A DNA stretch of 20,000 bases from Spizellomyces punctatus DAOM BR117 (taxonomy: Eukaryota). The position numbers were made by a program, and so were the translations under genes. Under the pieces are notes generated by a model. The model ran no database searches. It saw only the letters and a program-made list of their open reading frames with translations, and was not told where the DNA came from. This document shows positions 1,152 through 17,034 of the stretch, one piece after another. Position 1 is the stretch's first letter, and every line of letters begins with the position of its first letter. The DNA is taken from NCBI GenBank assembly GCA_000182565.2, contig KQ257455.1. One strand, written 5' to 3'.

Positions 1152-2112
1152 AGTTGACTTGGGATTCATGGCGGCCGCGATCTCCAGTTTCTGTTTTGTT
1201 CTAGCATCCGTGATATTGGACAGTTTTGCTCTTTAGAGAGAAACAATATATGGATATTAGAGCCGCACGTCGTTATGATCGGGTTTTATCTCGAGAATAA
1301 CAGCGTTTATGCTTTCAACTCAAATAATCAATGCAGTCGTGTGCATTGCCTACTCATGGATGTGTTTTGAGGTCAAGGCGGGCGGTAACAGTGCCATCCC
1401 CATTGGCATTCGTCTATCACAGCGCCTGAGGTAGTTCCTGATGATTAAAAGCCAGCTTGCAGTAAAGGTACAAGAAGTGCAAACATGTCCCCACTGGACA
1501 TTCTGTGCACATCTAGCTCCCCACTGTTAGGTTTGAGGTAACCTACAGTTTTCACTATCAGTTAGCAGCCAATGAGCCCTCTGCTTATTTAGGAAAAGCC
1601 TCTTTATCCTCTCGAAATCGACGCAGAATGTGGTTGCTGTCTGAGCCAGAACCTGTCCTATTCTGGCATGGCAACTGACCCCGGATCTGAGCGAATTCAG
1701 TTAAAAATTATTTAACCTGGTGAAGACTGCCGTTGATCTCTGACTATCCAACTGCCATGATGGAGAAAAGTGCCGTTCTCCTATCCAATGTAAGTTTATA
1801 TGTTGCGATTTGATGGCAGTGGGGTACAACAGTGTATCAATTGGAGAACAACGCTAACCTGCTAAATCCTGGCAAGCAAAAGAACAATGCATCATATCCA
1901 CATTCATGTCTGGTAAGATCACCTTTTTTTCCCTGTGCGATGCATCTGTGAGTCAGGACACTGGGGCTTTGGCTAGCTAAGATTGCAAGTGGGCTCATAA
2001 AATATATGGAGCAAAGAAACAGTATAACACCAAAGTCCTGACGTGGCAGAGTCCAAATCTTTCCCCTACAGTGTACCAATTGTAGAATCCCCAGTGTGCA
2101 ATTATCACGTCA

Positions 2113-4884
2113 CTAATCCTCTTCTTCTTCTTCAGCGGTTTGCAACCACAACACAAACGGTGCCGCTTTCTTCTTCAATTCATCAGATCCGATGCCCCTG
2201 TACCATTCCAAAAATGTGTCTTCCTCCACCAAATCCGTGTCTAAGCAAACCGAAAACTGGTCAATAAAGCACGATAGAGAAATCACTTTACAAGCACCGA
2301 CGCACCATAAAGGTCTTTGCATATGAGCGGTACTTTGGATAATAATCCCCTGGTCCTCAGGACCTGCTTTTCCCAGACCTTGAGAAATGCCACTTGATCC
2401 TGACGACTGCGTATGAACTGTGAACGGATCAGTCAGCTTGAAGCTTCCTGAACCGCTGGGTATGACATGAGATCCCCTAAACATACCTGTTGAAAGAGCT
2501 TGACCCTGTTTACAATCTTTGCACTCTCGTATGTGCTATCAAGTAATAGCGCTCCCAACAATACAGCAAAGACTTGCCGCTTGCTCAGATCATGCTTGAA
2601 CTCCATGCGTGTGACTTCTTTGATTTCTTCGTTGACGCTAAGGCGGCCGGGGTTAATGAAGCGAGCAAGTTCTTGCGAAAGCTTCTCTTCGAGGAGGTTC
2701 GCTTTTTCGTCAGCTGGATGAAGTGGGGCACGTGGCGGTGGTGGAGGGTGGGGGCTATGGACAAGCAGAGACAGACTGCTCAAAATGCCGTCTAGATTAC
2801 ACTATAACAACAAGTGCATAACTCCTACATACCTGCTGTTGTTTAGATTTCCTCTTTCTTCGTCGGAGAGTTCGACAATGCGCATCCAAGGTTTGCTCTT
2901 AGAAATTGGACGCCGTGAGTAAGTGCTCGCGTAGTCATGGGCATACTCTTGCAAGGTCCTACTTTATCATCACCACTTAAGAGATCCTTCAACGAAGACT
3001 TGTCTCGGAGATGCCCGCGGGAGGTGGGAGTAGGAGGGGTGGATGATGCCGTGATCGGTGCCTTGGTATTGTTGATCACTTCGACCTTGGCCGGCGTATC
3101 CGGATGAGGTTCGGTTGAAGGCGCGGTTCTACGTTTGCATATCGGTAATCGCAGCTACAGCACAAATTCATTAGCAGATCAAACTCACCTGCTGCGCGTT
3201 GCAGTGTGTGATACATCGCCGTTTGCTTTGGTCTTAAGAGGTGCAGGTGCCTGCTGTATTGGTTCCTTTTGAATGTTGTCCTTCTCACCTTCTCGGGCAT
3301 GGTTGGGTCGTTCCCGAAGCTCACTAGAGAAGTAACGAGATCAGCCTTTCCTATGCCAGTGCCCGTCGGATCATGATGGAATACATGCCTAGGACTTTTA
3401 AAATTGAAAAATTAACACGATTCGCCTCGAGAGCCACGCATTCGACCAGAGAAGGACATACCTGTGCGCAAAGTTGCAACGTGGACCGTACTGCGACCCA
3501 AACGATGAAGTGGTGTTGAGAGCGAAATTAAGAGTCAGCCGTGCTCAATGATCAGACGTTTACCTGACAGAATCCCTAGATGGATAACTCAAGTAAGAAT
3601 TGTGAAACGACATTAAGCTGCAGCGATAGGATGTAGACAACACACCTCTTTAACAAATCGTTCGCAAAGCCGCGTTTTATACAGCGGACTTCCAGGGCCG
3701 TCTTTCTTGTCGACTTCATCGTTCACCAGAGGACGTTCTCGTAACTCTACCTGAAATACATTGAACCTGTTAGCTTCTCACAAGAATGCAAAGGAGATCC
3801 GTGCAGTACCGTGCCGTGCGCGAAAGTGCATCGGTTCCCGTAAGGACAATGGGCTTCAGTCTCATATCTCTCGCAGAGTCTCGTCTTGTACAGAGGATTG
3901 GATGCTTGTGAATTGGACGTCCGTGCTGACGGGTGGCGCGGGCTCTCATTTTCATCCCAAGCTTGCTTGTCATTATTGAGCGGGGATTCTCTCCAGTTTT
4001 TTGCTCCGTTGGGTCCTAAGAATAGTCCTCGGCCCTCCTGAGATCGATGTCGTGCAGGGCTACTGGGACGCCGCGATTCCTCATCTAAACTTCGTCGGTA
4101 GCGTTTATCTCCTTCCCGGTTGTTTCCCGTTGATCGGCGACCCAAGTTTAACTTTTGAAGGTTAAGGGGAATTGATGCATCCGCAGCCTGATGCCGGTGT
4201 TGGGTGGATTCGATGAACACAGAAGCCTGTTCAAGCACATCTTGCATACTTTTAAACAAGGACTTTTCGGACGCCTGATCGAAGAAGGTTAAATGCTGCG
4301 AGCAGCCCGCCAGAATCACTCTGCCCTACCAACCTGTTTCAACTGCATCCACGCTATATTAAGCCCAGCAAGTCCTCCCGGTACAATTCTGACATTTGTC
4401 ACCAGACGGGCAAGAAAGAAAACTGCTCGTTTGGGCTTCGTTCCTGACAGATACTAGAAACGGATATATGGCATATTTGATTAACAAGAAACAGAATTTG
4501 GGAGATCACGACGGCAACGTGCCTTGATTTCCGCTCGAAACCCGTCCTCTATCTGGATATCCTTCACGCTCAGGCCCGTTACGTCCGGCACCACGCGAAT
4601 AGCACATCTGTGTCAGACAGAGAGTGTGTCAGTTTATACACACAAGATGCATTACCAATCAGCAAAGCATACTTCAGCTCGTCTTCTTGGCCAATGAGTT
4701 TTCCTTTGGGAGGCGTCCTGACCGTCAAAGACAGCACAAATTATGTGTGTTGAATATCTCGTCGATATTCTGACTCAAACGAATCTTCATACCAATGTCG
4801 CTTATTAGAGAAAGAGTCGTTGACCAACAAAAACTCGATATTCTGGCGAATCCGATAAATAACGATTCCCGCTGCACTCTCCAT
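2113..4884 (-). CDS. Nudix(NUDT2/Ap4A-hydrolase-like, degenerate)-tandem CCCH zinc finger-W2 domain protein, ~610 aa, 15 predicted exons
   Basis: Exons (minus): 4884-4793, 4717-4673, 4607-4523, 4453-4334, 4274-3810, 3750-3646, 3575-3564, 3490-3462, 3394-3389, 3323-3189, 3128-2963, 2897-2833, 2754-2487, 2417-2306, 2240-2113. All phases are consistent and introns are 59-78 nt. N-terminus MESAAGIVIYRIRQNIEFLLVNDSFSNKRHWTPPKGKLIGQEDELKCAIRVVPDVTGL...GFRAEIKYLSGTKPKRAVFFLA aligns by eye with NUDT2. Two YKTRL-C-x8-C-x5-C-x3-H fingers. C-terminal LYDTDLVEEDTFLEWY...AAPFVLWLQTAEEEEED* matches W2 AA-boxes. Junctions in the low-complexity middle (3189-2755) are less certain. Confidence 0.85.
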
Positions 4885-5224
4885 GAATATGCAGATTTGG
4901 ACAACCCCCAATGCTGAAAACTCCTAAAGCTCGAGAAGGGTGAGTTTCGCTGAAAAGGCGTAGGATGGGGTCGTTGGAAACGAGACGGGTTGCTCAAAAA
5001 GTTCAACCACGACTGTTTGATGAGCCATTGAGTCACTCGCCACAAAATCGCGTTTGAAGCCCGACTTTTGGACACGCCGCCTTTCTTGTCATTTTGGGTC
5101 TTCATTTTGGGTCTTTTTTTAAAGGCTTTTTGGGACGATCTTACAGGGCGTGGATGAGACGAGGGAAAGGGGAGGAGGGGAAGCATATCTTTTGACTGTT
5201 GAAGAGAGAGAGAGGATCTACAAA

Positions 5225-8036
5225 ATGATGCAAAAGTACATTCCACTTGCAACGGGAGTCATGCTCCCGATTGCAACGGCACTCAACACTCAGTCGCTGA
5301 TTGTCGCCGGCTGGCTGTACGAAGAAAAGCTATCGCACGACTATCCGTTCTATGAATCCTTGGTCCGCCCACATAAACACCGTCTTGTTTACTACAAGCC
5401 CTCGGTCGTCTTCGTGCTCTCTGCGATATCCCTCGGCTTTGGCTTGCTGAGTGTCATTACTCTCTTTGTGCGCATGCTAGAGTATGCCTCCATGTTTCTG
5501 TCATCATTTGGATGCCGTTGCATTTATTGTTGACCTTACAGGAAGAAGATCAAATGGTGCACACGACTAATGATAGCCGGGGCGGCTGGACAAGGTAGCT
5601 TTGCTTCCTTCGGCCACTTGTTGCTAGCAAGGCTCAATTTACATTGTCTTGCCTAGGATTATTTGCCTCAGCCGCAGTTATTGCCTTCATCATCTGGAAA
5701 TCCCTAACATATGTGCATGGGAAATACACTGAAGGATGTTTTTACAGCGCAATATCTGCCGCTATGTCGATAACGGTGGCTCTGCTATCTGCATATCATC
5801 ATCATCTGAACCGCCGGCAACTCTATTCCTATACTCTCTATGAACTCTCCCCTTCGCAACGCCAGTTGATTCTGCTTCTGATCACGTCCATTAGTTATAC
5901 GTTCGCGATGGGTGCTGCTTATGCTGGCTTAGAAGGATGGTATGTTGTTCACACGTGAGGACCAATGCTGAAACTGAACGGATACCTAATGGGCGATACT
6001 TTTAGGGATTTTGACGATGGTGTTTATTGTATGTGCTTGGGGCGTCTTCCACACGCGGGATGCAACACACTCAATTGCAGTTCTCCACAGGGTGTGTGTC
6101 AACACTCGCAACCATCGGGTTCGGGGATTTGGTGCCACAATCCATCACGGGTAAAGTGACCCTTCCCCTTGCGGCGTCCTGTGGGATTGGTATACTTGCT
6201 GCTAGCATCTACGCGATCCGGCAGGTTGCTCTTGAGCTTCTGACACATCGACTGGCCAGCGAATACTCAAGGTCGTTCGGAATTGCCAAGGAATATGTGC
6301 CCACAGAGGACCATTCACCCGAAGAAGGACGTCCCTTGTCGTCATCGCCCATTATGCACCAGTCGTGGGACATGTTTCCGCAGAGCGAAGGATCAGTTTC
6401 GCGACGGCGATCCATCGGGGCCGCGCCCCAGACAAACCAGCGTTGCCGTCCTGCGGCTCCTCAAAGCATACCAAGATCTAGAGCATCTGAACCACACGTG
6501 GCCTTTTCTGCACCGAACACTAACATACTGCTGAATACTGGCCACAGCGTCTATGAGCCAACTCCCCACAGCAATGAAAGGCCATCAAACATCAGATACT
6601 CCGCACCTGCGGTGGCTGAATCGTTTGGGCTACCCTTAGGTCGATCGTTCACGACGTCTGTTCTCGAAGCTCGCACGATGGTTATTTCTCGGGGCGCCCA
6701 TCTGCCACAACTGACCATTGTAGCTCCTGCGGATGTGCGGCGTCGGCAGGTGGTTGAAGCTACTCGGAGGACCTTTCGCCAGCAGATTACCTTTGCCATT
6801 CTAGCTGTCATAGCCAACATGTCAGTTTTTGGAGGCGTCTTCTCCCTCTTTGAGGGTTGGCATTTTTTTGAAGGTACATTTTTTAAGTCACCAACTTTCT
6901 TGCTTGCTCTCGATTTATAGTAGTTGTCCTACAGGTCTTTATTTCACATTCTGCGCTTTAACCACAATAGGTTTGTTTTCACAGCAGTTGGAGTGATCAA
7001 CAACTATATTGCATGGATGGCTGATATGCATGTTGTGACAGGTTACGGAGATTACACCTTGTCTACGGTGCAAAGCCGTTCCATCTTCATGTGGTTTCTT
7101 TATATTGGCATTGGCAGCGTCACCTACATGTTCTCATTAATGTCGGAGCGGGCTCTCGACCAGTGGACGGTGACGGTCAATAAGATTGAAAACAGAGTGG
7201 ACCGATATGAACGCAAGGCAAAGTTAAAGAAGTTATATAAAAATAAAGGGCTTACGCTGGGCGTGCGAAGACGTGCTCGAAAAGAGGAGAGTACAGATCA
7301 AGAGAGCGAGCTACTTGGAGAGCGCGAGCCGGTTACACGTGCGCGGCAATCTGATGATGAACACCCGCTTACCAGCGAATCTGAGTTCTACCTCTCAGAT
7401 GCGCAATCCCAAGAGCATCTGCCTGCGGAGGCACCCGTTTGGGAAGGCATAGGACGCCCAAGGGCAAGTCCTCAGCCGCTTGAGGCCGAGGAGACTTCTA
7501 AGGAAGTGGAAACACCTGAAGTAGCCGGCGAACTGGAATTAGAGACGACACCGCTGCTCAGTCCCACAATCGAACCCCCAGTCGTTGGGTCGGTTCGGAT
7601 TGAGCCGCCGTCCCCATCGACCTTGTGGGGACGCTCGAGAGGGCCGCCTCTCCTTTATCGTACCGGGACGGTGGATTCAACCGCGAGTTCCTTACGGGGA
7701 GTCGTACGGTTGGAGGCTCCTGCCACCTCATTGCCGCCGTCTGACATTGGAAATTATCCTTCCTTCCGTCGGGTTGAAACCACACCAACTGGCACTGAAG
7801 GCCGACGTGGCACGGAGACTCGTTTCCTGAGTACTGGTGTGCCTATAGATCACTATTCAACCGACGAAGAAGAGTTTGAAGTTACGGGCAGATCCGTGAG
7901 GATGTTCTCCGGGCGTAAAAGTCGTCGCTCCAGCATTGTATCAAGAATAGTTCAACAACCTATTTCAGCGGATGCGGCCTTTGACCGAGAAGAATTGAAT
8001 ATCTCCTGCCCAGACGATGAGCGAGCAGCTGTATAG
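5225..8036 (+). CDS. TOK1: TOK-family tandem-pore (8 TM, 2 P-loop) outward-rectifying K+ channel, ~809 aa
   Basis: Exons 5225-5481, 5542-5594, 5657-5939, 6006-6028, 6091-6873, 6935-6970, 7042-8036. Pore 1 is WCVSTLATIGFGD and pore 2 is YFTFCALTTIGYGD (split by an intron). Five hydrophobic segments precede P1, two lie between the pores and one follows P2, matching fungal TOK topology. Confidence 0.9.
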
Positions 8037-10636: not shown

Positions 10637-12267
<1,631 letters not shown>

Positions 12268-15200
12268 ATGAGCGCCTCGGGAGACCACCAGCTCGGCGTT
12301 ACTCCCCGCTCCTATCAGTATGAAGTGTTGGATAAGGCAATCGATAGCAATGTCATTGCCGTGCTCGACACTGGAAGTGGGAAGGTGAGTGCTTGAAAAC
12401 CAGTCACGTCAAACTGAGTACTTGGAATGTCTGAAACCCAAACGTAGACCTTGATATCGGTTATGTTGATAAGTCACATGGCTCGCCTCGAGCAAAAACG
12501 CAGGGTATGAAAATACTGATTGACCTGTTTTTAGTGAATGCGTTGCCTCTGATCTACATACACTGTAGACTGAAAACCCAGGTTTACGGACTAGGCTTAG
12601 TGTCTTCCTTGTTCCTTTGGTACCGCTGGTTCTGCAGCAGGAGGAATACGTCAGGAAACACTGTAATCTTAAAGTCAAACACTATTATGGAGCAATGCGT
12701 GTGGATGACGTGAGTCTGAACCTCGAGAGGGAGGATTTTGATGTATCAATAAATTGCGGCACATTGACAGTGGTCTGAAGAACGATGGAAAAATGAAGTC
12801 AGCGAAGCAGAGGTGATGGTTATGACAGCGGACATTTTCAGAAATATGCTGTGCCGTGCGTATATTGCAATGGAACAGGTTGGTTTGGCGCATCATTGTT
12901 GAATCTGCCTCTTATTGAAACTTGTGTTTATTAGATAAATCTCATTATTTTTGATGAGTGTCATCATGCACGTAAAAACCACGCATACAATCAGATCATG
13001 GGAATTCATTATAAACAATGTCGAGAGTCAGGGAGGCCGAAGATTTTTGGCATGACAGCATCGCCGACATTTGGCAAGGAAAGCTACCAAAGCTCTATAA
13101 TGTACGGAAGTCTATGAATTCATTCTTGAATCACAGCTTATGGATGAGATTTTAGGCAAATCGAAGGAAATCTTGATGCAAGAGCAGTCACGGTAGATGT
13201 TGCAGAGGTATCCCCGCATGTACCGCGTCCAAAGCAAACAGTCGTCTACTACAAAGGCACGGAGCGTGCTGATCCACCGGCTCTTTATTATCTTGTGAAA
13301 CAATATGGCGGGCCTGCGGAAGAGGAATTGGCGGCTGCTCTCAAGAAGTCCCTTATCCTCTGCGAAGAACTGGGAACATGGTGTGCAGCACGGGCGTTAG
13401 AAATGGCGGTTCTGGCTACAGATGCACGACTTAAACGGTCTCGTGTCCTTCAATGGCACAATGGTCGACCGACAGAGGAATGCTCTGAACCGAAGGAGTT
13501 GGAAAAAGTTGCCGCTTTTGCCAACCTCAAGAGCTATGTTATGACGTCCCCATTTTGGTTCGATAACTTGTCTTCTCCGACTGCAAATGACCTGTCGCCG
13601 AAAGTCATGACTCTTCTAAAGGTGCTTGAAGAGTATCGTAACTGCAAACATTTCTGCGGAATTGTTTTTGTTCAGCGCAGAGCTACGGCACGTGTCCTCG
13701 ATCTCGTCATCAAGAGATGGAAAGGTTTAGAATTTGTAAAATCCGATATCTTGGTTGGTCATGGAATCGGATCCGCCAGTCCAGCAGACGTAAACCTACG
13801 CGTGCAGCAGCAAAGGAAGATTGTTCAATCGTTCCAGAAAGGCGAAACAAATCTAATTATTGCAACCAGGGTAAGCTTCCCAGAAACAATCCGTGGTCTT
13901 CCTGTAATAATAACGTTCTTTCTTAGGTTGCCGAAGAAGGCCTTGATATCAGAGCTTGTAATTTAGTCATACGGTGAGGATCATGCACACGACATTGCAT
14001 AGACGAGGAACTGACCGACAATCGGCTAGATTTGATGTTTGCATCACCTTAACGAATTATATACAATCCAGAGGGCGGGCAAGGCGCATGGATTCAGAAT
14101 TCATTACGCTCTGCAATCGCAACAGTCCCTCCGAGGCCGTGCAGCTTGCAGAGTTGCAACGAGAAGAGCAATTAATGCGGGCTGCTCTCCAAACGCGAGA
14201 ATCCCTGACAGGCTCCATGGAGTCAGCTGTACAACCGTCTGACGAGGAAATCTATACAGTCGAATCCACTGGTGCTTCCGTGACACTGTACACGTCAATC
14301 GGAATGTTATATAACTATTGTGCCCTCTTACCTACAGACAGCGTTGGTGCATTGACACCCACCTTTCAAATCGCCCCGGTACCCGATTTGGCCTATGGGC
14401 CGTGTGAGTTTAAGGCAAGCGTGACGCTCCCGCCCAGTGTGCCAATTGAGGCTCGTTATGCGACCAGCAAACTTTGTGCCCGCAAAGCTCTGGCAAAGCA
14501 ATGGGCTGCGTTGGAGATCATAAAGAGGTTGCACGCAGCTGGAGAATTGGACGACCGATTGAAGCCGATCAAAGCCGTATCTCAAATTGCGGGATTTGAC
14601 GAAATGGTTGAACCTGTGGGAACCGGTGGCGATACTGAGCGAAAAAAGAGGCAAATCCTCGAATTTCGGATGAAAACACCGGTTTTCTGGAGGGGTTCTT
14701 GGAAGCCTCATCAGCCGACATGGTTAACCTTAGTTCGGATGCATGTCGATAATGGAAATAAACCAACATCAGATATTGGACTGCTGACTGTTGGTGAAGG
14801 TCCAATGCAGAAGGGAATTTTTCATATGTCGATTGCAAACAGGTTAACCGCGGTTGAAATTCAGTCGTCCAGATGCCCCCTTGATTTGGATTTGCCAACG
14901 CTAGCATCCGTAAAGAGGTTTCACGTGGCACTCTTCAAGGGCATATTGCGGAGTGATGTCCAAGATGAAGCGGAATGGGCGACCATCGTAGTACCGGTAG
15001 TGGAGACACTGACGGATTGGACCGCCTTGGGGGATGCATTCGATCCTCGAGCAGTCATTGATTGGGAAAGCGTCGCTTTTGCTTCGCGAGCTCAGCAGCC
15101 ATTGCTTGACCAAGATGGGAACTTGACTTGCGCGAACCTTCAAGCTGTGGTTCTACACAGCCGCGTCCACCATAATCGGCTATACTTGGTTGATAAGGTC

Positions 15201-17034
15201 CATGATCATTTGACACCGTACAGCGATTGGCCGATAGAGGAAGGAAAGTTTCCAACACTTGGACGGTATTATGAAGCTCGTTTAAAATATCCGGAACCAA
15301 TTCACACCGCACAACCGATAATTAAAGCTCACCGTTTACCTTACATTACGCAAACGACAATGGAAAAGCAACCTACTTCGGCTGCCTACCTCATTCCCCA
15401 ATGCTGCACTATCTACCCGATACCGGCGCACATTATGCGAGGTACTGCTCTGCATTTACCCATACTCCTTCAGCATTTGCAACATCGATTGCTGGCTTCG
15501 GATCTAAAATACTACGGGTTTGACGATTTCATGTCAGACGACTATCTGCACGGTAGCGTTGAAGATCTCCAGGCTGCGCTAACTGCCCCTGTAGCAGATC
15601 CTACAGTCAATTACGAGCGCTTAGAAACGTTTGGAGACAGTTTCCTGAAAATTCATCAGTCCCTGCACTTGTATGCATCTTACCCAACATGTCATGAAGG
15701 ACGCTTAAGTCTCATGAGAAACGCACTGGAGCGCAACACTGCACTGAGAGCATGTGCTATGAAACTCGGGTTGGAAGGCTATGTCTTGGGAACAGGGCTG
15801 TCGAGACGGGAGTGGACACCTCCAGAGCAGCTAGGAGGTGGAGGATCTGTTCATAAATTGAGCGACAAGACTGTGGCCGATGTTGTAGAAGCTATAATCG
15901 GAGCATGCCTATGCGGAGGTGGCATACGGGGAGGAGCTGGCGCTGTCGTCAAACTTCTTGGACATGGATATGAATCTGACTGGAGCATTTACTCCCAAAA
16001 ACTTGCGGAAAGCCGGCAGTCTCGGACTTTCACAGTAATGGAGCCAATCGTTCGGCAGGTGGAACAAGCGATCGGTTATCAATTCAAGGACATGACTCTT
16101 GCTATTGAAGCGTTAGTTCATGCGAGTGAAGCTCGTGCTGTAGCTGAAATAGGATCGTATCAACGTCTCGAGTTCCTTGGTGCGTAGTGAAGAAAGGTTT
16201 GGATGCGGCTTATGACAACTCACCAAAAGCTCATTGGCGCTGTAGGCGATGCGGCACTGGGATTTGTTGTTACTCGACACTTGTACGCAATCAGCCCTCC
16301 CCTGTCACCTGCTGAGCTCTCAGAATTCCGGTCCGAGTTGGTAAACAACCAATTCCTCTCATGGGTTTCGTGGACACTGGGTCTCACGAAACACATACAA
16401 TACAATGATGCGGCTCTGGAAAGTGCCATCGCGCATTTTGGTCATCAGATGGAACGCGTGACGGGTGGGGTACGCACACCTAGATTCAAAACATCCGCGT
16501 TAAAAGGACCCCTCTATTGGAAAGAGCTCGACGCGGCTCCAAAGTCGACAGGGGATGTATATGAGGCGATACTCGGTGCAGTGTTTGTTGATTCAGGGTT
16601 CGATGTCGAAGCTCCTTGGGGTGTCGTGCTACGTACTTTGATAGACCCGTGGTGGCACCTCTTTCAGGAGGCTGGATGCGGGACAGCTCAATCCAAATGC
16701 GTGCGGTCTGCGGATGAGACGAATCCTATCGGCGAGGCATATGAGTGGACGCAGAAGATGAGATGCGAGCGGTTGCAATTTACGTATGGTTCCAGTTGAT
16801 TTTCTATTTTCTCAGAGGTGGCAGTCAAAGACTAATTATGACGAAACTTTGCCCAGCATCGAAATCGATGAGGAAGCCGGTGTAATTAGATGCACATGCA
16901 CGTTTCATGATGTGCCTATTGGATGTGGTGAAGGCAAGAACAAGAAAATCGCTAAGCGCATAGCGGCAGAACACGCCCTGACCTTTCTGAGGTCGATCGA
17001 TCGTTGTGCATGTCACCAGGAGGGTAAAAATTAA
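12268..17034 (+). CDS. DCL: Dicer-like RNase III (DExD helicase - DUF283 - PAZ - RNase IIIa - RNase IIIb - dsRBD), ~1405 aa
   Basis: Exons 12268-12384, 12448-12504, 12569-12709, 12771-12878, 12935-13101, 13156-13870, 13927-13973, 14030-16179, 16246-16783, 16857-17034. Helicase motifs [39 protein letters not shown] and [12 protein letters not shown]283-like [13 protein letters not shown]-like LTPYS..YY..QP..LIPQCC; RNase IIIa [18 protein letters not shown]; RNase IIIb [25 protein letters not shown]; ds[21 protein letters not shown]. Confidence 0.96.

Follow-up and report, generated by a model that had tools for sequence, protein, structure and literature searches.

The minus strand of a 20,000-nucleotide stretch of contig KQ257455.1 (assembly GCA_000182565.2; the window below) from Spizellomyces punctatus DAOM BR117, a chytrid according to a taxonomy look-up, carries between positions 4884 and 2113 a gene for a 608-residue protein with three modules in one reading frame. 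These are a Nudix domain related to NUDT2, the hydrolase of diadenosine tetraphosphate (Ap4A), a tandem pair of CCCH zinc fingers resembling those of TTP and TIS11, and a C-terminal W2 domain resembling that of eIF5. The Nudix box is eroded at catalytic positions, and the fusion is conserved in fungi outside the Dikarya. Taken as a whole, the account that we regard as probable, with clear reservations, is that of a single Nudix-CCCH-W2 gene whose product acts as an mRNA-tethered eIF5 mimic with a pseudo-Nudix input.

The textbook route from AU-rich elements to mRNA decay runs through zinc-finger proteins of the TTP type, and in every studied case that we know of these recruit other factors via short motifs. 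The family described here joins TTP-type fingers directly to a domain resembling the part of eIF5 that binds eIF2, and to a probably disabled Ap4A hydrolase. If the proposed mechanism is true, it would provide the first message-specific eIF5 mimic, and a concrete eukaryotic effector for Ap4A-type nucleotides. The family occurs in arbuscular-mycorrhizal fungi, Mucorales, rumen fungi and chytrids; since it is unseen in Dikarya among the matches listed, it may mark an evolutionary shift in post-transcriptional control among fungi.

Gene structure and the truncated public model

The gene model was built by reading the minus strand in three frames and then setting the splice sites by coordinates. 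It is phase-consistent, with 14 exons, 13 introns and no internal stop, and its coding sequence of 1827 nt comprises 608 codons and the stop. The start ATG lies at 4884-4882, with an in-frame stop upstream at about 4926-4924, and the TAG stop codon occupies 2115-2113. Introns are 59-138 nt long, with GT-AG borders in 12 of the 13 and GC-AG borders in intron 3. A previous annotation of this DNA from its letters and open reading frames (ORFs), here the sequence-only reading, had placed the gene at 2113-4884, exactly from TAG to ATG, and had joined three modules in one protein, all of which are real and share one frame; its 15 exons were one too many. An alternative intron 10 donor at about 2945 was tried and dropped, as it yields a Lys/Arg-rich frame that contradicts the public protein P0001.

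P0001 (SPPG_03989, Spizellomyces punctatus DAOM BR117; 485 residues) is the public counterpart of the gene and is annotated with CCCH and W2 only. A search with the longest exon found it at 100% identity over the aligned part (90% of the query), and residues 124-608 of the full model (exons 5-14) are identical to it at every letter. On this comparison the public model is the same gene minus its first 123 residues, which are encoded by exons 1-4 and the first nine codons of exon 5. The separate stop-to-stop ORF pieces of the Nudix part gave no match in a Pfam scan, and this is why the ORF track misses that part, as the sequence-only reading had correctly remarked.

The spliced N-terminus aligns colinearly with the N-termini of full-length relatives, with no rearrangement, and its start (MESAAG) resembles theirs (MESAVG, MEQYAG, MEHYAG). 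It is 69.9% identical to P0006 over 136 residues (E 8e-67) and 67.9% identical to P0002 (Gaertneriomyces, same order), while identity to relatives is about 52% in the W2 domain and 78-81% in the fingers. That the N-terminus exceeds the W2 domain in identity indicates purifying selection on the unannotated exons. When P0006 is aligned with human NUDT2, ...YKSMQDVLKQA falls opposite the last helix of the enzyme (chain residues 124-138). The public start Met falls inside this helix, so the public model is N-truncated, and a second gene upstream is not indicated. Several public models of relatives look N-truncated likewise. A 40-residue query from exon 4 gave no match at E <= 0.001 among proteins of 71-2000 residues, which is weak evidence that this exon is absent from public proteins.

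The cause of the truncation probably lies in intron 3, where a gene finder that accepts only GT donors would lose the frame and start downstream. The protein junction at this place, EIK/YLSG, is conserved in 8 of 9 aligned relatives and needs a GC-AG intron in S. punctatus. Three contigs (X1 record 3, X2 record 5, X3 record 8), which are colinear with the genome including introns and so look like DNA, span the site with 0 differing letters; the GC donor is therefore not an assembly error. Intron 4 (59 nt, GT-AG; junction ...WMQLKQ/ASEKSLFKSMQDVL) alone separates exon 4 from exon 5. Among the splice sites tried and dropped were GT donors 5 or 11 nt downstream in intron 3 with a CAG acceptor, which would remove the conserved YLSG, and a 38-nt intron 4 ending at 4296, which is too short and adds residues absent from all relatives.

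A divergently transcribed neighbour occupies 5226-8036 (plus strand), its start lying some 341 nt from the ATG at 4884 on the upstream side. Its exon ORF at 6015-6920 matches Ion_trans_2, pointing to a potassium-channel-like membrane protein. The short intergenic region shared by the two genes fits a promoter of the full-length gene upstream of 4884.

A NUDT2-type fold with an eroded Nudix box

The assignment of the N-terminal module was made with a family profile built from 11 full-length relatives. Among solved structures the profile matches human NUDT2 (3U53, E 1.8e-22) and the Caenorhabditis elegans Ap4A hydrolase (1KT9, E 1.7e-21). P0006 by itself matches 3U53 at E 7.7e-18 and passes the PF00293 cut-off of 21.1 bits (28.3 bits), as do P0009 (38.7 bits), P0010, P0012, P0021 (41.7 bits) and P0023. 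The fold was predicted with AlphaFold2 from a 50-sequence alignment for P0002, the closest full-length relative (68% identical N-terminally). The predicted local distance difference test score is 83-97 over residues 1-150 and 92-97 over residues 441-580, and falls below 50 in two linkers predicted to be disordered. In a Foldseek comparison of this model, the ten best matches are all Ap4A hydrolases (template modelling score 0.76-0.90, target-normalised), the human and C. elegans enzymes scoring 0.80-0.90 with a root-mean-square deviation of 1.8-2.9 Å. The predicted model thus has the alpha/beta/alpha fold of Nudix domains, the top four sequence matches are Ap4A hydrolases, and the HWTPPKG and KPK motifs are common to both. 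Judged from sequence and modelled fold, the domain descends, within the Nudix superfamily, from the branch of the Ap4A hydrolase NUDT2.

Two short motifs are family-conserved in the otherwise disordered linkers: ...(A)LPL(N/D)(L/S)Q(K/R)... after the Nudix fold (about 4170-4150, minus strand), and ...KPWM(K/R)VVELS..E... before the W2 domain (2897-2850, minus strand). Seen in the A1 and A2 family alignments, they may be docking motifs.

The catalytic Nudix box follows the pattern Gx5Ex5[UA]xREx2EExGU, and its glutamates are essential, the EE-to-QQ form of Nudt2 serving as an inactive control, according to the portion of the study available (PMC7337524). The corresponding region of the S. punctatus protein reads GKLIGQEDELKCAIRVVPDVTGL, which keeps the G, the first E, the A, the R and the final G and L, while RE has become RV and EE has become DV, so that three of the four motif glutamates are V, D and V. 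Loss at these positions was followed in a census of 51 rows (50 relatives and the S. punctatus model; none dropped, though the models of P0007 and P0112 seem faulty in this region). None of the 46 rows with a residue at the second EE position has a Glu there (I 21, L 7, V 7, A 5, T 4, S 2); at the first EE position, 30 of 48 rows have E and 15 have D. The RE Glu is kept in 26 of 48 rows and replaced in the other 22 (N 10, V 6, A 4, S 1, Q 1); the structures 4IJX and 1XSA are mutants of this same Glu, as their entry titles and aligned letters indicate. Invariant in the 11-sequence alignment are K28, W31, P34 and K35 of the KRHWTPPKG motif, E42, E74, P83, K84 and W111.

Conservation of the fold and of a basic pocket, combined with loss of the metal-binding glutamates, typifies Nudix domains that bind without catalysing. 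The N-terminal domain is thus probably a ligand-binding pseudo-enzyme, and its ligand is most likely a dinucleoside polyphosphate or a cap-like structure that is bound and not hydrolysed. The sequence-only reading had used 'act on' for NUDT2-family enzymes and 'senses' for this protein; for the module, 'senses' is the better verb, catalytic glutamates being lost.

Replacements of the RE Glu differ between lineages, which suggests repeated, independent loss of the catalytic Glu. RN is found in P0012, P0018, P0019, P0022, P0025, P0033, P0035, P0038, P0039 and P0052, and the names of all ten are of Glomeromycotina type; RV, RA or RS stands in this place in Spizellomycetales and in some of the Kickxellomycota rows.

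TTP/TIS11-like fingers

The two fingers, the second of which is interrupted by two introns flanking the 12-nt micro-exon 7, score 66.2 bits against PF00642 in 2 stretches of P0001 (cut-off 20.5). Both are preceded by the lead-in LYKTRLC. The best solved matches are 6NZL (E 8.9e-14), TTP (1M9O, 4.1e-12) and TIS11d (1RGO, 7.6e-12), and 9Y10 also falls in the range of 1e-12 to 1e-14 that these span; the family profile reaches TIS11d and TTP at about 1e-15. TTP/TIS11 proteins are defined in addition by a fixed spacing of 18 residues between the fingers. Here the spacer from the finger 1 His to the first Cys of finger 2 is 30 residues, a 12-residue gap in the alignment with TIS11d and TTP. The pair had been classed from the letters alone as TIS11-type, which stands for the finger pattern and lead-in and fails for the spacer. 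TTP-type fingers bind AU-rich single-stranded RNA, and by analogy this TTP/TIS11-like pair would select such RNA as well. Each finger is followed by ELRERP (3809-3790 and 3323-3306, minus strand; family consensus ELRERP or ELRxRP).

An eIF5-type W2 domain

The C-terminal part of P0001 scores 61.4 bits against PF02020 (cut-off 30), and the ORF of the last exon alone 45.0 bits. Its best solved match is the C-terminal domain (CTD) of human eIF5 (2IU1, E 1.6e-7), with both AA-boxes aligned. These acidic/aromatic boxes of the eIF5-CTD type are both present: AA-box 1 reads DLYDTDLVEEDTFLEWY where human eIF5 has EMYDADLLEEEVIISWS, and AA-box 2 (...WLQTAEEEEED) forms the extreme C-terminus, WLQTAEEEE standing against WLKEAEEES in human eIF5. 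The family profile matches eIF5 residues 221-388 (2IU1, 2.4e-16), and eIF2B-epsilon and eIF4G1 more weakly. The W2 (eIF5C) domain of the sequence-only reading is borne out by this PF02020 score and by the alignment of both boxes with eIF5.

AA-boxes characterise W2 domains and bind the Lys-boxes of eIF2-beta; in eIF5, eIF2B-epsilon, Kra and 5MP1 it is AA-box 2 through which eIF2-beta is bound. 5MP1 competes with eIF5 and inhibits translation at initiation, as stated in the available sections of one report (PMC3201852). Binding of eIF2-beta by a free W2 protein of the 5MP1 type is described in the accessible part of another (PMC12439599). By analogy the W2 domain of the S. punctatus protein is expected to bind what eIF5 binds, above all the Lys-boxes of eIF2-beta. 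No MA3 or MIF4G match was found by Pfam in P0001 or in nine scanned relatives. 5MP/BZW proteins have an N-terminal HEAT/MA3-type part before W2, and Kra is termed an 'MA3+W2 protein' in the sections consulted (PMC3201852). The protein may thus work like 5MP, while not being a member of the 5MP/BZW group.

Distribution of the family

A profile search found 153 proteins at E <= 1e-5, and architectures were counted from a precomputed Pfam column for the best 120 of these 153. PF00293, PF00642 and PF02020 occur together in 80 of them. A further 33 are without PF00293, including the Spizellomycetales proteins P0001, P0002, P0004, P0097 and P0120-P0122 and all eight listed rows that source names place in Kickxellomycota; seven have Nudix without W2, and three of these are marked partial. 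Every row named to an organism is a non-Dikarya fungus, and no Dikarya protein appears among these listed matches. Phylum look-ups gave Chytridiomycota, Neocallimastigomycota, Basidiobolomycota, Kickxellomycota, Olpidiomycota and Glomeromycota; many further relatives we take to be Mucorales and Mortierellales.

An exhaustive HMMER scan of 1.84 billion representatives found 165 proteins (E <= 1e-30). From among the longer or more divergent of these, ten were identified by name and scanned with Pfam; eight have CCCH and W2 above the cut-offs, one of these also NUDIX, and nine presumably belong to Kickxellomycota by their source names, the placement of Coemansia having been looked up. One of the ten was set aside as an unrelated, nine-finger protein. 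A single ESM Atlas cluster of 79 members has CCCH and W2, its commonest phylum being Mucoromycota. Three Harpellales proteins (P0135, P0136, P0139; 899-1027 residues) keep CCCH and W2 and have N-terminal extensions of 330-480 residues without a PF00293 match, which could represent either a Nudix part that has diverged or another kind of module.

Two metagenome contigs (L001, L004) each carry one uninterrupted ORF (674 and 695 residues, respectively) in which NUDIX, both CCCH fingers and W2 exceed their Pfam cut-offs. This evidence does not depend on intron prediction, and the fusion is therefore real and old. Sequence comparison indicates that it is conserved across most early-branching fungi; for S. 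punctatus itself we infer it.

The architecture, which the sequence-only reading had called unusual, is not unique and characterises a conserved family of non-Dikarya fungi. Automatic database names for its members are 'nudix ... type motif 2', 'bis(5'-nucleosyl)-tetraphosphatase' and 'Cth1p'. A literature search covering open-access papers (subscription papers and supplements lay outside it) found no description of a Nudix-CCCH-W2 protein, in agreement with the previous statement that the combination is uncharacterised.

RNA reads

None of the listed records that contain this stretch of DNA is registered as RNA. RNA run X23 was examined over 1900-5200, where it contributes 320 reads of 60 nt, nearly all of which are first mates and almost all within 2011-2340. 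Eight spliced reads with five start places cross the joint 2240/2306, which has CT..AC ends on the plus strand. The poly(A) end lies at about 1983, with loose T-runs before this position in 4 reads and a depth of 50-67 over 2011-2232. The run is strongly 3'-biased, like a 3'-tag library, with reads stacked on the last 350 nt of the gene; depth is 0 over 2788-4119 and 4342-4896, 0.42 at 4120-4230 and 0.04 at 4231-4341. Because of this bias, X23 is uninformative on the Nudix-CCCH junctions and on 5' structure genome-wide. The reads confirm the 3' end only, and a single transcript in S. punctatus is presumed from the gene model.

Proposed mechanism and alternatives

In the mechanism that we propose, the fingers would bring the eIF5-CTD-like W2 domain to particular mRNAs. 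The tethered W2 domain could then compete with eIF5 or eIF2B for eIF2, or could sequester or mis-position eIF2 (or eIF3c or eIF1), and initiation would be repressed or re-programmed on the bound mRNAs. The pseudo-NUDT2 domain could provide a ligand-dependent switch, responding to a diadenosine polyphosphate (ApnA), a cap or a cap-like end, or could make a second contact with the mRNA 5' end. The sequence-only reading had suggested a bridge from a 3' UTR element to eIF2, which is likewise conjectural. Every binding partner and every effect named here is one that we infer by analogy. The more specific proposal, that the pseudo-NUDT2 domain serves as receptor, with Ap4A, a different dinucleoside polyphosphate or the cap as the ligand that switches the mRNA-tethered eIF5-CTD mimic on or off, we consider quite unlikely to hold in full. 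If it did, early-branching fungi would couple alarmone or cap status to the use of eIF2 on AU-rich mRNAs. TTP-4EHP-GIGYF2 is a repression route of animals, to which the fungal protein would then be a one-polypeptide counterpart, and the tandem zinc-finger proteins of Dikarya (Cth2, Zfs1) would be stripped-down descendants.

Several observations weigh against the account as a whole, the single gene and the eIF5 mimic alike. W2 domains also bind eIF3c, eIF1, eIF4G and Mnk, and the partner need not be eIF2-beta. Since the finger spacer has 30 and not 18 residues, RNA specificity may differ from that of TTP. P0002 has no PF00293 match at E <= 0.01, so that in the S. punctatus lineage the Nudix assignment runs through transitive homology and a predicted fold. 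The Gx5E Glu and several charged Nudix residues are invariant, which makes residual or altered catalysis possible. GC splice donors are rare, and intron 3 needs one. Finally, no X23 read connects the Nudix exons with the remainder of the gene, the 5' region being uncovered.

In one alternative reading the Nudix domain is still an enzyme, such as a decapping enzyme or a hydrolase of 5'-triphosphorylated RNA (PPP-RNA) or ApnA with a non-canonical metal site, which would make the protein a TTP-like decay factor with its own 5'-end hydrolase. The NUDT2-type fold of the P0002 model would suit such an activity, as would the invariance of the Gx5E Glu, HWTPPKG, KPK and the FRAEIK Glu in the 11-sequence alignment; mammalian Nudt2 takes flavin adenine dinucleotide caps off RNA in vitro, by the available text of PMC7337524. 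The same text has Nudt2 inactivated by the EE-to-QQ change, and in this family the second EE Glu is missing throughout the census and the RE Glu in nearly half of it, with three of the four motif glutamates gone in S. punctatus. An active enzyme is thus rather unlikely. The loss of the catalytic glutamates could also mean that the public annotation is right, with a 485-residue CCCH and W2 product starting at 4247 and Nudix-like exons that are a decaying relic, a 5' leader or not transcribed with the gene. The GC donor of intron 3, the public start at residue 124 and the absence of a PF00293 match from four other Spizellomycetales or Rhizophlyctidales models would all agree with this. On the other side, the four exons keep frame and splice signals without a stop, and at 68-70% identity to relatives they are better conserved than the W2 part. 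A start at Met 124 would cut the last helix of the fold, and P0002, from the same order, is predicted full-length. We think it very unlikely that the public annotation is right.

Without splicing of intron 4, the frame continues past the donor for just 5 codons before it ends at a stop, and the public model uses an internal ATG; one locus could on these grounds give two products, a short stand-alone pseudo-Nudix protein made when intron 4 is retained (...WMQLKQVGRAE-stop, about 4316) and a CCCH-W2 protein from the internal start. Against this, relatives encode the junction ...LKQ-A.EK..YKSMQDV in one frame, the L001 and L004 ORFs are uninterrupted, and only about 70 nt separate the stop from the internal ATG, which leaves such an arrangement extremely unlikely.

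Coordinates of features and other genes of the window

Coordinates of the gene and its parts are collected in Table 1. Elsewhere in the window, a Dicer-like gene lies at 13148-16799 (plus strand), with one ORF carrying Dicer dimerisation and RNase III domains and the next a second RNase III domain, and a cytidylyltransferase-like ORF lies at 10825-11547 (minus strand; PF01467, 67 bits).

Table 1. Features of the Nudix-CCCH-W2 gene, in window coordinates
Feature	Position	Strand	Basis or detail
Whole coding region	2113..4884	-	spliced 1827 nt, no internal stop; residues 124-608 = P0001
Exons 1-4	4884-4793, 4717-4673, 4607-4523, 4453-4334	-	lengths 92, 45, 85, 120 nt
Exons 5-9	4274-3810, 3750-3646, 3575-3564, 3490-3462, 3323-3189	-	exon phases mapped
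Exons 10-14	3128-2963, 2897-2833, 2754-2487, 2417-2306, 2240-2113	-	exon phases mapped
NUDT2-like Nudix-fold module, residues 1-140 (exons 1-4 and start of exon 5)	4197..4884	-	colinear homologues 68-70% identical
Nudix-box region, residues 36-58, spanning intron 2	4704-4571	-	reads GKLIGQEDELKCAIRVVPDVTGL
Intron 3, GC-AG, 69 nt, donor GCACGT	4454..4522	-	splice sites; joins ...AEIK to YLSGTKPKR
Annotated public start ATG (residue 124 of full model)	4245..4247	-	residue-to-coordinate map
Tandem CCCH fingers	3464..3875	-	PF00642, regular expression and residue mapping
Finger 1, residues 248-267	3875-3816	-	C-x8-C-x5-C-x3-H
Finger 2, residues 298-317	3666-3464	-	C-x8-C-x5-C-x3-H; over exons 6, 7, 8
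W2-type HEAT domain, residues ~441-608 (exons 12-14)	2116..2753	-	PF02020; eIF5-CTD alignment
Last intron, 65 nt, GTGCGT...TTAG	2241..2305	-	RNA-read confirmed
3' untranslated region, ~130 nt	1983..2112	-	poly(A) site near 1983

Comparison with known systems

Compared with known proteins, the S. punctatus product would work as a TTP-type RNA-binding protein linked to an effector of the 5MP kind, yet on its sequence features it is a full member of neither family: the fingers lack the 18-residue spacing, the N-terminal part of 5MP is missing and the Nudix box departs from the catalytic pattern. With ZFP36/TTP-TIS11 proteins (yeast Cth1/Cth2, Schizosaccharomyces pombe Zfs1) it shares two C-x8-C-x5-C-x3-H fingers and the YKT-x-LC lead-in, and a Rhizophagus relative is named 'Cth1p' by one source. 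It differs from them in that its fingers lie mid-protein, between Nudix fold and W2, and the NOT1-binding C-terminal motif of that group was not noticed here, no search having been aimed at it. The W2 HEAT domain with AA-boxes 1 and 2 is common to the eIF5 CTD, 5MP1 (BZW2), 5MP2 (BZW1) and Drosophila Kra/eIF5C. Unlike eIF5, the S. punctatus protein lacks an N-terminal GTPase-activating (GAP) domain, and unlike 5MP it lacks the MA3/bZIP-like N-terminal part, its W2 domain being tied to an RNA-binding module instead.

The N-terminal module resembles NUDT2, the asymmetrical Ap4A hydrolase, in fold, sequence and the HWTPPKG and KPK motifs. NUDT2 is, by contrast, a stand-alone chain of about 140-155 residues, whereas the S. 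punctatus domain is fused to two further modules, and human RETQEEAG has become RVVPDVTG with the loss of Nudix-box glutamates. In this last respect the nearest parallels are CFIm25/NUDT21, which binds UGUA and Ap4A, and the NUDT9-H domain of TRPM2. CFIm25 chains are found among the fold matches of the P0002 model (Foldseek, ranks 35-50), and human TRPM2 NUDT9-H is described as a binding-only Nudix precedent in the available parts of two papers (PMC6461439, PMC4974056). Both belong to other Nudix subfamilies (NUDT9, NUDT21) and have other partners, and both are alike with the S. punctatus protein in that a Nudix fold with a mutated box is kept for ligand or RNA binding within a larger machine.

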